In this document: in pieces, positions 41,797 through 45,240 of the stretch | Layout of the letters: each line of letters opens with the position of its first letter | Numbering within the stretch: position 1 is the stretch's first letter | Source of the DNA: an uncultured Spirochaetales bacterium | GTDB lineage: Bacteria > Myxococcota_A > UBA9160 > UBA6930 | Length of the DNA stretch: 64,000 nucleotides | Assembly: GCA_964501435.1 (NCBI GenBank) | Contig: CAZCTH010000008.1 | Coordinates: forward strand, 2,978-66,977 | Direction of reading: 5' to 3' | Position numbers and translations under genes: made by a program | Notes under the pieces: generated by a model | Database searches by the model: none | What the model saw: the letters and a program-made list of their open reading frames with translations, nothing else | Told to the model about the DNA's origin: nothing

Positions 41797-42696
41797 ATGC
41801 GGCGGTCCGAAGCGGGACGGTTGGGATTCGGCGCGGTCGCGGCGCTGCTGCTCCTCGCGGGCGGCGGGCTCGCCTACGCACAGCGCGACCGCTTGCCGCT
41901 CGCGCTGTTGCACACGGAGGCGAAGCCCGCGCTGCCGGACGTCGCGCTCGCGCCGCCCGCCGCGCACGGAGACCGCGTCGCCGCCCTCGGGCGGCTTCAG
42001 CCGAAGGACGGCGTGCGCGTGATTGCCGGCCCCGCGCAGCCCGTGGCGGTGGTGGGCGAGCTGCTCGTGGACGAGGGCGACGCGGTGCGCGCCGGCCAGG
42101 TGATCGCGCGGCTCGACGACGCGGAGCTGCGCGAGGCCGCGGTGCAGCGCGCCGAGGCGCGCGTCGCGAACGCGAAGGCCGAGCTCGCGCGCAACGCGCA
42201 GCTGCGCGAGGGCGCGGTGATTTCCGTGTCGCTCCACGAGAAGCTGAAGCTCGAGCACGACGTCGCGGTCGCCGATCTGCGCCTCGCCCGCGCGGAGCTC
42301 GCGCGGGTGCAGGTGCGCTCGCCGATCGACGGCCAGGTGATCGACGTGCACGCGCGCGCCGGCGAGCGCGTCGGGCCCGAGGGCATCGTCGAGCTCGGCG
42401 AGACGCAGGCGATGTACGCGGTGGCGGAGGTCTACGAGACGGAGGTCGGCGGAATCGCGCTCGGGGACGAGGCCGAGGTGGCGAGCCCCGCGCTGCCGCG
42501 TGTGCTGCACGGCCGCGTCGACCGCATCGCGATGCGCGTGCGCAAGCAGGACGTGCTCGGCACCGACCCCGCAGCGCGCACCGACGCGCGCGTGGTCGAG
42601 GTCGAGGTGCGCCTCGACGCCGCCGACGCCGCGCTCGCGGCGCCGCTCACGCATCTGCAGGTCGAAGTCTCGATCCGCAGGCGAAGCGCGCAGTGA
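41797..42696 (+). CDS. HlyD-family membrane fusion protein, DevB-type (ABC exporter adaptor)
   Basis: ATG 41797 lies in the frame of ORF 40747..42696. There is an N-terminal TM segment (GFGAVAALLLLAGGGLAYA), a lipoyl-like segment VDEGDAVRAGQVIARLDD, a coiled coil, and VRSPIDGQVIDVHARAGERV. Confidence 0.85.
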   Translation: MRRSEAGRLGFGAVAALLLLAGGGLAYAQRDRLPLALLHTEAKPALPDVALAPPAAHGDRVAALGRLQPKDGVRVIAGPAQPVAVVGELLVDEGDAVRAGQVIARLDDAELREAAVQRAEARVANAKAELARNAQLREGAVISVSLHEKLKLEHDVAVADLRLARAELARVQVRSPIDGQVIDVHARAGERVGPEGIVELGETQAMYAVAEVYETEVGGIALGDEAEVASPALPRVLHGRVDRIAMRVRKQDVLGTDPAARTDARVVEVEVRLDAADAALAAPLTHLQVEVSIRRRSAQ

Positions 42697-42757
42697 GCCG
42701 CAGGCGACCGGAGTCGCGCCCGGGCTCGCGCTGCCCTCGCACGGCGCCGTAGCCCCG

Positions 42758-43909
42758 ATGTTCGGGATCCCGATCGGATGGCTCCAGCTGAAGCGCGAGA
42801 AGCTGCGCTTCGCGGTGGCGCTGCTCGGGGTCGCCTTCGCGGTCGTGCTGATCCTGATGCAGCTCGGCTTCCGCGAGGCGCTGTTCAACAGCGCCGTGCG
42901 CTTCCACGACGCGCTCGACTGCGACGTCGTGCTGATCTCGAACGAGCTCTCCTACATCGTGGACCCGCGGGCTTTCTCGCAGCGCCGGCTGCTGCAGGCG
43001 CGCGGCGCCCCCGGCGTCGCCTCGGTGACGCCGGTGTATCTCGGCATGGCGTCGTGGGAGAACCCCGATACCCACGTCGCGCGCGGCATCTTCGCCGTCG
43101 GCATCGATCCGGCCGGGCGGCCCCTCGCGCTGCCCGAGGTGAACGCGCAGCTGGACGCGATCGTGCGCGAGGACGCCGCGCTCTACGACGCGCTGTCGCG
43201 GCCCGAGTTCGGTCCGATCGCGGCGCGCGTGCGCGCGGGCGAGACGCTGATCGCCGAGGTGAACCACCGCGAGATCCGCATCCCCGCGCTCTTTCGCCTC
43301 GGCACCTCGTTCGGCATGGACGGCAGCCTCGTCACCAGCGAGACGAACTTCCTGCGCCTGTTCCCGAATCGCGAGCGCGGCCTGATCGACATCGGCCTCG
43401 TGCGCGCGCAGCCGGGCGTCAGCCCCGCCGCAGTGCGCGACGCGATCCGCGCGCGCGTGGGCGGGGACGTGGTCGTGCTGACGCTCGCCGAGTTCCGCGC
43501 GAAGGAGATCGCGTTCTGGGACTCGACGACGCCGATCGGGTACGTGTTCAGCTTCGGCGTCGTGGTCGGGCTCGTGGTCGGCGGCATCATCGTCTACCAG
43601 ATCCTGTTCGCCGACGTGAACGACCACCTGCCCGAGTACGCGACGCTGAAGGCGATGGGCTACTCGAACGCGTTCCTCGCCGGCGTGGTCGTGCAGCAGG
43701 CGGTGATCCTCGCCGCGTTCGGCTTCGTGCCCGCGATGGCGCTCTCGGTCGTGCTCTATCGCGTATCCGGCGACGCGACGCTCCTGCCGCTCGAGATGAC
43801 CACCGAGCGCGCGGTCACGGTCTTCGGGCTCACCGTCGGGATGTGCGTGCTCTCGGCGCTGATGGCGCTGCGCAAGGTGCGCTCCGCCGACCCCGCGGAG
43901 ATCTTCTGA
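42758..43909 (+). CDS. ABC exporter permease, DevC/FtsX-like family
   Basis: ATG 42758 is residue 87 of ORF 42500..43909. The protein begins MFGIPIGWLQLKREKLRFAVALLGVAFAVVLILMQLGF, has a large periplasmic loop, and ends with the FtsX-like TM bundle LKAMGYSNAFLAGVVVQQAVILAAFGFVPA. Confidence 0.85.
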   Translation: MFGIPIGWLQLKREKLRFAVALLGVAFAVVLILMQLGFREALFNSAVRFHDALDCDVVLISNELSYIVDPRAFSQRRLLQARGAPGVASVTPVYLGMASWENPDTHVARGIFAVGIDPAGRPLALPEVNAQLDAIVREDAALYDALSRPEFGPIAARVRAGETLIAEVNHREIRIPALFRLGTSFGMDGSLVTSETNFLRLFPNRERGLIDIGLVRAQPGVSPAAVRDAIRARVGGDVVVLTLAEFRAKEIAFWDSTTPIGYVFSFGVVVGLVVGGIIVYQILFADVNDHLPEYATLKAMGYSNAFLAGVVVQQAVILAAFGFVPAMALSVVLYRVSGDATLLPLEMTTERAVTVFGLTVGMCVLSALMALRKVRSADPAEIF

Positions 43910-45240
43910 TGTCCGCCGCCGAAGCGCCGATCCGGCTCGAGAACGTCAATCACTACTACGGCGCCGGAGCGTTGCGGAAGCAGATCCTGCACGGCATCTC
44001 GGTGGAGCTGCGCGCGGGCGAGATCGTGATCGTGACCGGGCCCTCGGGCTCGGGGAAGACGACGATGCTCACGCTGATCGGCGCGCTGCGCTCCGCGCAG
44101 GAAGGCTCCGTCCGCGTGCTCGGGGAGGAGCTGCGCGGCGCGAGCACGCGCACGCTCGAGAAGGTGCGGCGCGACATCGGGTACATCTTCCAGGCGCACA
44201 ACCTGCTGGATGCCCTCACCGCGACCCAGAACGTGATGCTCTCGCTGCTGCTCGATCGCGTCGGCCGCAGCGAGGCGCGCCGGCGCGCCCGCGAGTGGCT
44301 CGAGGCCGTCGGCCTCGGCACGCGCCTCGACCACCATCCGTCGCAGCTCTCGGGCGGCCAGCGCCAGCGCGTCGCGATCGCCCGTGCCTTGGCCGGTGCG
44401 CCGCGCATCGTGCTCGCCGATGAGCCGACGGCCTCGCTCGACAAGCAATCCGGCCGCGAGGTCGTGGACCTGATGCAGGACCTCGCGCGCAAGCAGGGCG
44501 TGACCGTCCTGCTCGTGACCCACGACAACCGCATCCTCGACGTCGCGGACCGCATCGTGCACCTCGAGGACGGCCGGCTCACGACGCTCACCGAGCACGT
44601 CACCGCGAACACGCAGCACATGATGGACGTGCTCGCCCGCAACAACCGCAAGGGCGATCTCCAGCGCCGCGTCGCCGAGGCGCCGGCCGAGGCGCTGCCC
44701 ATGCTGCTGGAGCAGGCCACGAAGAGCGCCGAGGAGTTCCTGCGCGTCACGGAGCTGAGCCAGGACGACGCCTTCCAGAGCATGTTCGAGGAGGTGCTCG
44801 CCTCGTTCACGCTGCGCTTCGGCGACCTGATGGGCGCCGAGCGGGCCTCCATCTTCCTCGTGGACGCCGCGCGCCGCGAGCTGGTGCTGAAGGTCGCGCA
44901 GCAGGAGGGCGGGCGATCGCTCGACGTGCGCATGCCGATGGACCGCGGCATCGCGGGCCACGTCGCGAGCACGGGCCATAGCGTGCGCGTGGACGACGCC
45001 TACGCGAGCCCGCTCTTCAATCCCGAGGTGGATCGCGCGAGCGGCTTCACGACGCGCAGCCTCCTGTGCGTGCCCATCGCCGACCGGCGTGGGGCCGTGT
45101 TCGCCGTCGCGCAGCTGCTCAACAAGCGCAGCGGCGAGCCCTTCGACGCGGGCGACGAGGAGCGCTTCCGGGCCTTCACGCGCGGCGTGGCGCCGATCCT
45201 CGAGGCCTGGGCGGGCATGTCGCGGCGCGGGGCCAGCTAG
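43909..45240 (+). CDS. ABC transporter ATP-binding protein (DevA-like) with a C-terminal GAF domain
   Basis: ATG 43909 overlaps the permease stop (TGATG). Walker A is GPSGSGKTT, the ABC signature is LSGGQRQRVAIARAL, and Walker B is IVLADEPT. About 200 extra residues follow, with a GAF-like pattern: ERASIFLVDAARRELVLKVAQQ...GIAGHVASTGHSVRVDDAYASPLFNPEVDRASGFTTRSLLCVPI..RRGAVFAVAQLLNK. Confidence 0.85.
   Translation: MSAAEAPIRLENVNHYYGAGALRKQILHGISVELRAGEIVIVTGPSGSGKTTMLTLIGALRSAQEGSVRVLGEELRGASTRTLEKVRRDIGYIFQAHNLLDALTATQNVMLSLLLDRVGRSEARRRAREWLEAVGLGTRLDHHPSQLSGGQRQRVAIARALAGAPRIVLADEPTASLDKQSGREVVDLMQDLARKQGVTVLLVTHDNRILDVADRIVHLEDGRLTTLTEHVTANTQHMMDVLARNNRKGDLQRRVAEAPAEALPMLLEQATKSAEEFLRVTELSQDDAFQSMFEEVLASFTLRFGDLMGAERASIFLVDAARRELVLKVAQQEGGRSLDVRMPMDRGIAGHVASTGHSVRVDDAYASPLFNPEVDRASGFTTRSLLCVPIADRRGAVFAVAQLLNKRSGEPFDAGDEERFRAFTRGVAPILEAWAGMSRRGAS

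Follow-up and report, generated by a model that had tools for sequence, protein, structure and literature searches.

We analysed a 64,000-nucleotide stretch (the window; G+C about 72%) of contig CAZCTH010000008.1 from an uncultured bacterium of the lineage Myxococcota_A, in which three contiguous genes on one strand (41797-45240) form a devB-devC-devA operon for a tripartite ATP-binding cassette (ABC) exporter whose ATPase continues into a C-terminal GAF domain. The genes lie exactly where the initial annotation, made from the sequence alone, had placed them, with the lengths that it gave for adaptor and permease, and the overlap it noted between permease stop and ATPase start is borne out: a gap of 61 nucleotides (nt) separates devB from devC, while the devC TGA and the devA ATG have one base in common (TGATG at 43907-43911). 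The operon and the parts of its ATPase, which we call devA::GAF, are as follows (aa, amino acids; cNMP, cyclic nucleoside monophosphate).

41797-42696, + strand: devB-like membrane fusion protein (periplasmic adaptor), 299 aa, with an N-terminal hydrophobic membrane anchor (TIGR02971, HlyD_D23, HlyD_3)
42758-43909, + strand: devC permease (FtsX/MacB type VII ABC), 383 aa (TIGR01185, FtsX)
43909-45240, + strand: devA::GAF ATPase, 443 aa, its start overlapping the devC stop (TIGR02982, PF01590)
43909-44586, + strand: nucleotide-binding domain (NBD), ATPase residues 1-226 (TIGR02982, ABC motifs, AlphaFold2, Foldseek)
44587-44766, + strand: helical linker, ATPase residues 227-286, with the conserved stretch NRKG(E/D)L (AlphaFold2 helices, conservation)
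44767-45237, + strand: GAF domain of putative cNMP type, ATPase residues 287-443 (PF01590, CyaB2 and phosphodiesterase matches, NKFDE motif)

By its gene families the operon is a DevBCA-type (MacB-like, type VII) tripartite ABC exporter, as had been proposed, and all three products score above the trusted cut-offs of the NCBIfam models. DevB reaches 197.5 bits against TIGR02971 (DevB family, cut-off 129) in two matched stretches, the best covering residues 152-293; DevC reaches 466.5 bits against the equivalog model TIGR01185 (cut-off 290.35), matching end to end with residues 4-383 on model positions 1-380; and DevA reaches 337.8 bits against TIGR02982 (DevA family, cut-off 295.8) over residues 8-224. 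In Pfam, DevB also matches the HlyD-type adaptor domains HlyD_D23 and HlyD_3, DevC matches FtsX above the cut-off (55.4 bits) and MacB_PCD under it (22.5 bits, cut-off 27), and ABC_tran covers residues 27-175 of the ATPase. The ATPase core is as complete as first described, with Walker A (GPSGSGKT at residue 44), signature (LSGGQ at 147) and Walker B (LADEP at 169), and the H-loop is intact too (VTHD at 203). Also in line with the initial annotation, no TolC or OEP gene was detected in the window by tblastn, nor by a Pfam scan of its positions ~1.8-56.7 kb; DevBCA operons normally come without a TolC-type gene of their own. Nothing was found in a promoter and terminator scan of 41500-46400, which says little at 72% GC.

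The C-terminal extension of the ATPase, first read as a GAF-like module, does score as one, with 51.8 bits for GAF (PF01590, cut-off 22.4) over residues 294-425 and 37.6 bits for GAF_2 (PF13185, cut-off 28.6), the two matches together lying within residues 294-432. The gene is a single uninterrupted open reading frame (ORF), and its architecture is widespread. In a search of 5.8 billion proteins, ABC_tran and a GAF-family domain occur together in each of the best 120 clusters, which were the ones evaluated (62-100% identity, 402-470 aa). All 15 genome or assembly loci hold NBD, linker and GAF in one frame behind devB and devC. A metagenome scan with a profile of the linker and GAF part only added 80 examined loci, 66 of them reaching far enough upstream, and in every one of these 66 the linker and GAF follow a DevA-type NBD in frame, with no free-standing linker and GAF among them. 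The fusion is thereby present in 81 of 81 evaluable loci from independent assemblies, and the order devB-devC-devA is kept in all fusion loci with enough sequence (devB lies 5' of devC wherever contigs reach). Named sources of the ABC-GAF combination, whose spread was a matter raised by the initial annotation, are Myxococcota, 'Deltaproteobacteria', Candidatus Binatia and Wenzhouxiangella (Gammaproteobacteria). Family size can be given as lower bounds of at least 120 clusters at 90% identity and at least 311 confirmed metagenome stretches; 50%-identity representatives are few, and a search with the C-terminal half returned, beyond P0182, P0192 and fragments, mostly multi-GAF signalling proteins. 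NCBI labels devA::GAF proteins only as 'ATP-binding cassette domain-containing protein', and no account of a GAF domain joined to an ABC or DevA ATPase turned up in full-text literature searches. We therefore regard devA::GAF as a conserved and apparently undescribed family.

The AlphaFold2 monomer model (mean predicted local distance difference test, pLDDT, 81.8; predicted template modelling score, pTM, 0.61) gives confident folds for both domains, the NBD with a pLDDT of about 90 and the GAF domain, confident over residues 287-442 with alternating helices and strands, mostly above 85. The placement of the GAF domain relative to the NBD, for which the initial annotation had looked to AlphaFold, does not emerge from the model, in which the linker helices (227-246, 250-257 and 260-284) have a pLDDT of only 50-60. 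Across lineages the linker keeps its sequence, which would be expected of an element that transmits a signal. In Foldseek, the NBD is best matched by MacB (5lj9), YbbA (9ge6) and LolD (7v8i) with target-normalised template modelling scores of about 0.9 and 38-40% identity, other matches being MJ0796, FtsE and, via its NBD, MetN; no solved ABC protein carrying a GAF domain is among the Foldseek matches. The nearest non-fused relatives are cyanobacterial DevA proteins with NBDs 60-66% identical, and these agree with the earlier statement that DevA-family ATPases normally stand alone: three that were translated to their stop codon (loci L010, L012 and L078) measure 226-240 aa, without extension, and all cyanobacterial matches are confined to query residues ~1-245. 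In a rough neighbour-joining tree of the NBD, without bootstrap, the cyanobacterial proteins form a single clade that does not include the fused forms.

A different extension was seen in Haliea, Halioglobus and other gammaproteobacterial metagenome-assembled genomes, whose devA genes (367-370 aa) carry a TerB domain (PF05099, ~140 aa) in place of GAF and lie behind devB-devC just like devA::GAF (L009:2741-3850, 53.5 bits; L011:5620-6729; L053:2471-3571, 47.5 bits). With TerB and GAF attached at the same C-terminal point, the DevA C-terminus is a recurrent fusion point, and it seems to be a general attachment site for accessory domains.

As to the kind of GAF domain, all 20 solved structures matched by residues 222-443 are GAF-domain proteins, and 19 come from cyclic-nucleotide-regulated enzymes, the sole exception being the metal-dependent phosphohydrolase 4mcw. 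The best match is the tandem GAF of Anabaena CyaB2 (1ykd; E 7.5e-42), with 86.5 bits for GAF-A and 57 bits for GAF-B, and the phosphodiesterase (PDE) PDE2A is matched at E 2e-27, with 84.7 bits for its ligand-binding GAF-B and 12.9 bits for its dimerisation GAF-A; PDE10A GAF-B, PDE5A GAF-A and PDE6 are found as well. The NKFDE motif, defined as N(K/R)-Xn-F-X3-DE, sets cNMP-binding GAFs apart from other GAFs (PMC11977230, PMC4411481). It is present in the window protein as N405-K406-x5-F412-x3-D416-E417 and is kept throughout 62 family sequences (N 62/62, K or R 61/62, F 60/62, D 62/62, E 60/62). In CyaB2 GAFb, cyclic adenosine monophosphate (cAMP) is contacted by R291, T293, I308, T309, D356 and N359 (PMC4411481). 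Mapped through the alignment of the GAF part to solved structures, these residues correspond in the same order to R312 (62/62), S314 (62/62), V329 (58/62), A330 (60/62), D375 (62/62) and S378 (T or S in all 62), and T382 is also invariant (62/62). Contact residues of PDE2A were mapped as well, their numbering being cross-checked against that alignment. The pocket is identical in 13 of 14 loci compared across lineages, only the divergent L008 deviating. Judged by its sequence, the domain is of the cyclic-nucleotide-type subfamily, with a putative pocket for cAMP or cyclic guanosine monophosphate (cGMP). The initial annotation had named cyclic nucleotides and tetrapyrroles as GAF ligands, and the former are favoured by the CyaB2 and PDE relatives, the NKFDE motif, the pocket, and cNMP genes that lie beside the operon elsewhere. 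A tetrapyrrole-binding GAF was rejected because phytochrome or bilin-type structures are missing from the PDB matches.

Genes of cyclic-nucleotide signalling surround devBCA::GAF in several lineages. On a 3.2-Mb contig (L003:3267-14496), a class III cyclase (PF00211), devB, devC, devA::GAF, a cNMP_binding-patatin phospholipase and a cNMP_binding-FAD_binding_4 protein are encoded on one strand. In Wenzhouxiangella (L006:9355-11154 and L007:8001-16898), a cNMP_binding-NTE_Ploop-patatin gene lies 10 nt 3' of devA::GAF, and L007 further on holds a hybrid histidine kinase gene and then one for a HisKA-REC-cyclase. Among the 52 metagenome loci whose contigs extend 1 kb or more downstream, six have a cNMP_binding-patatin gene within 0.1-1.4 kb 3' (L129, L132, L139, L147, L160 and L161; four on the same strand, two convergent), another of the 52 (L118) has a cyclase gene 116 nt 3' of devA::GAF, and three shorter contigs (L109, L165 and L168) show a cNMP_binding match just 3' of it. 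A cyclase is found at most 10 kb away in 5 of the 15 genome or assembly fusion loci versus 0 of 72 dev loci without GAF; neither cyclase nor cNMP_binding nor patatin genes occur in those 72 loci (1.0 Mb, mostly cyanobacteria).

Which nucleotide would be bound is addressed by cues of two kinds. Towards cAMP point the invariant Arg312, which equals CyaB2 R291, the residue that bonds N1 of adenine (PMC4411481), and the position of the acidic cGMP selector known as D164 from PDE5 (PMC4411481), occupied by Gln331 in the window protein (codon 44899-44901). Of the 62 sequences, 50 have Q at residue 331, six have R, five E and one K. The acidic selector of PDE2A is presumably D439. Towards cGMP point the Glu at position 331 in the Wenzhouxiangella proteins and L086, and the L007 cyclase, which shares ~60% identity with Cya2, a guanylate cyclase from Synechocystis (2W01, E 3e-59). 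An E488K exchange makes Cya2 an adenylate cyclase (PMC5995499); the L007 cyclase retains Glu at this position and the L003 cyclase also has Glu in that column, while among the other linked cyclases L088 is of the adenylate type (Lys/Thr) and L083 and L086 are atypical, with Asp. Nucleotide specificity may differ between branches.

The recurring neighbours of the operon include genes of lipid type, i.e. FA_hydroxylase, WS/DGAT, P450, short-chain dehydrogenase/reductase (SDR), enoyl-CoA hydratase and, in other lineages, patatin lipases. FA_hydroxylase genes lie near the operon in the window (50821-51675) as well as in L004, L081, L086, L088, L091 and L104. These neighbours are suggestive of a lipid substrate rather than a peptide or drug. 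The reading that we favour, and consider moderately probable, is that of a MacB-type lipid exporter with an ATPase gated by cAMP or cGMP. If it works like the homologous MacB-type transporters, two DevC and two DevA subunits together with a ring of DevB adaptors would push a lipid-like substrate outwards through ATP-driven periplasmic movements, with DevC as the membrane permease, DevA as the motor and DevB docking to a TolC-like channel whose gene lies elsewhere. In the DevA dimer, the two GAF domains might pair beneath the NBD dimer, an arrangement modelled on the GAF dimers of cyclases and PDEs and on the C-terminal domains of MetN, ModC and MalK. Binding of cAMP or cGMP by the GAFs would re-orient the linker helices so that NBD closure on ATP is favoured or hindered, and export of the lipid-like substrate would follow the cellular cyclic-nucleotide level. 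Ligand binding, GAF dimerisation under the NBDs, coupling to the ATPase and the lipid nature of the substrate are all points that we infer.

Several observations weigh against a cyclic-nucleotide-gated lipid exporter. The NKFDE residues make no ligand contact (PMC11977230), some NKFDE GAFs may not bind cNMP at all, a GAF domain C-terminal to its effector is unusual, and the cues for cAMP and cGMP conflict. The monomer model, with its pTM of 0.61 and linker pLDDT of 50-60, does not give the packing between NBD and GAF. Since the control loci are mostly cyanobacterial, hence from another phylum than the fusion loci, the enrichment of cyclases is confounded by phylogeny. Moreover, the positive metagenome loci all belong to a branch of ~50% identity (7/37), versus 0/15 in the window's branch: neither the 64-kb window nor the vicinity of the operon in any of 15 close relatives (GAF part 60% identical or more) holds a cyclase, cNMP_binding or patatin gene. 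The argument from genomic context is accordingly borrowed from the ~50%-identity branches, because the window's clade has no such neighbours. Finally, lipid-type neighbour genes are common in such genomes.

Some of these points would suit a GAF ligand other than a cyclic nucleotide, for example the transported substrate or a related metabolite, with trans-inhibition as in MetNI and ModBC. Substrate sensing by C-terminal domains of NBDs is an established logic in MetN and ModC, and the operon in the window's clade has no cNMP-signalling gene beside it. Furthermore, GAF domains bind many and diverse ligands, including tetrapyrroles, formate and haem (PMC4411481). We nevertheless find such a ligand rather unlikely in view of the closest solved relatives, nearly all of which come from cyclic-nucleotide-regulated enzymes, the family-wide retention of NKFDE and of the CyaB2 contact residues, window protein included, and the recurrence of cNMP genes beside the operon in several lineages with the same pocket. 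Less probable still, though conceivable because the helical linker might wind into a coiled coil, is a GAF that acts without ligand as a dimerisation or scaffold module, joining DevA subunits or recruiting a partner. PDE2A GAF-A is a precedent, a member of a tandem array that serves dimerisation only. The invariance of R312, S314, D375 and T382 in all 62 sequences counts against pure dimerisation, which needs none of these ligand-contact residues, and PDE2A is matched far better through its GAF-B than through its GAF-A (84.7 versus 12.9 bits).

Gating by cAMP or cGMP might be part of a larger scheme, a lipid-remodelling module under cyclic-nucleotide control in which devBCA::GAF would serve as the export arm alongside the cyclase and the cNMP_binding-patatin phospholipase, a tentative extension that we hold to be rather unlikely. 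A regulated class III cyclase, guanylate-cyclase-like in some lineages, would raise cNMP, which would activate the NTE-like cNMP_binding-patatin phospholipase and, via the DevA GAF, open the MacB-type exporter, so that the lipid product is removed or brought to the outer membrane.

Directly downstream of the operon, the window contains one more gene for which a functional link had been suggested.

45333-46238, + strand: SPFH/Band 7 gene, 92 nt 3' of devA::GAF (PF01145, 105.9 bits)

Its product could be a partner of the exporter, e.g. a membrane-microdomain scaffold, given the common strand, the short distance and an adjacency that recurs in L081/L082 (ATPase 88% identical) and L097. However, apart from the window, only these close relatives (80-88% identity) have the SPFH gene behind the operon; L004, at 86% identity, has none there and goes straight from devA::GAF to amidohydrolase, P450 and FA_hydroxylase genes, and no such adjacency exists in any of the 12 other genome or assembly loci or in 51 of the 52 metagenome loci with downstream sequence. 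The entire stretch from devA::GAF to FA_hydroxylase is variable among close relatives: in the window (45241-51675) it comprises SPFH, amidohydrolase_2, P450, VIT1 and an ankyrin-repeat protein, in L081 the SPFH gene and a small ORF before FA_hydroxylase, and in L004 amidohydrolase_2 and P450. With adjacency confined to the closest relatives and absent even from L004, the suggested link is not supported and a functional partnership appears very unlikely; SPFH is a neighbour and not a conserved part of the system, its position being due to chance in the local gene order or, at most, characteristic of one shallow clade. An artefact of assembly or frameshift that joined two genes, finally, is practically out of the question, because dozens of separate assemblies, made by independent projects and covering different phyla, show the same fusion (all 120 best clusters and all 81 evaluable loci), which in the window is one uninterrupted ORF with a linker that is itself conserved.

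The remaining window is dominated by oxidoreductases and hydrolases for hydrophobic substrates, a gene set typical of degraders of hydrophobic compounds. Two catabolic regions (1799-27960 and 46267-56664) together hold luciferase-like monooxygenases, P450s and FA_hydroxylases (two of each), several SDR and alcohol dehydrogenase genes, a pyrroloquinoline quinone (PQQ) dehydrogenase, a sulfatase, an old-yellow-enzyme-type reductase, amidohydrolases, and two DUF3604 genes on either side of a TonB-dependent receptor. The ankyrin-repeat protein (49326-50681, 451 aa) consists nearly entirely of these repeats (Ank_2, 156 bits) and has a signal-like N-terminal segment. Further upstream, the stretch 28007-38156 contains, besides the gene for a DUF11-containing protein (28007-29839) and a 392-aa ORF without annotation, one for a protein of 1852 aa that has only a weak CarboxypepD_reg match and occupies the same upstream position in L081/L082; these genes possibly encode a cell-surface or outer-membrane assembly. 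Two genes 5' of the operon, on the minus strand (39005-40771), lies a gene whose 588-aa product is hydrophobic over its long N-terminal half and weakly matches the metallo-beta-lactamase fold (Lactamase_B_2, 31.1 bits); in L081, this position is taken by TetR and enoyl-CoA hydratase genes.

Extra domains on the ATPase that regulate ABC transport are known chiefly from importers, and a sensor of this kind is absent from the type VII exporters of solved structure among the matches (MacB, LolCDE, YbbAP and FtsEX). A multi-phylum family with a sensor of the cAMP/cGMP type on its motor subunit points to post-translational control of envelope lipid export by a second messenger. To our knowledge, few outputs of cAMP or cGMP signalling have been identified in Myxococcota, Binatia and these Gammaproteobacteria, and devA::GAF is a concrete candidate effector in Myxococcota, Binatia and some Gammaproteobacteria, while its repeated pairing with cNMP-binding patatin lipases suggests a partner that produces the substrate. 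If the lipid-remodelling module were real, direct gating of an ABC exporter by cAMP or cGMP would have its first example in devBCA::GAF, which would also add a new output to bacterial cGMP signalling. In size and solubility, the devA::GAF protein appears suited to direct assays of binding and ATPase activity.

One of the closest known systems is the heterocyst glycolipid exporter DevBCA-HgdD (TolC) of Anabaena/Nostoc, with which the operon shares the families of all three proteins, each above its cut-off, the gene order and an NBD 60-66% identical to that of cyanobacterial DevA. In Anabaena the outer-membrane partner HgdD is encoded outside the operon, and here, too, the operon has no gene for such a partner. 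On the other hand, the operon comes from a host outside the cyanobacteria, without heterocysts, and where cyanobacterial DevA ends after the NBD (226-240 aa) the window DevA adds 217 residues of linker and GAF. The Halieaceae-like gammaproteobacterial DevA-TerB proteins share the devB-devC-devA operon and an extension at the same C-terminal point, which is TerB (PF05099) instead of GAF. MacAB-TolC, LolCDE and YbbAP, type VII systems working by mechanotransmission, have the same NBD fold and an FtsX/MacB_PCD-type permease, yet the solved members bear no sensor domain on the NBD, and MacB combines NBD and permease in one chain, whereas the operon described here encodes its NBD as a subunit of its own. 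The GAF domain itself resembles those of CyaB1/CyaB2 and of PDE2, PDE5, PDE6, PDE10 and PDE11 (E 7.5e-42 to 1e-10) in NKFDE and pocket residues, but it is single and not tandem, stands C-terminal and not N-terminal to the domain that it would regulate, and that domain is an ABC ATPase, not a cyclase or phosphodiesterase. A parallel in logic is offered by MalK, MetN (C2), ModC, CysA, FbpC and OpuAA (CBS), in which a ligand-binding domain C-terminal on the NBD can control NBD closure, as exemplified by the trans-inhibition of MetN and ModC and the control of OpuA by c-di-AMP. Although devA::GAF has the C-terminal fused domain of this class (residues 227-443, in one ORF), it would work like these C-terminally regulated NBDs without being one of them, because the fold differs and they are importers: their regulatory domains have TOBE, ACT-like or CBS folds, while devA::GAF belongs to a type VII exporter and has a GAF fold, for which cAMP or cGMP is the predicted ligand.

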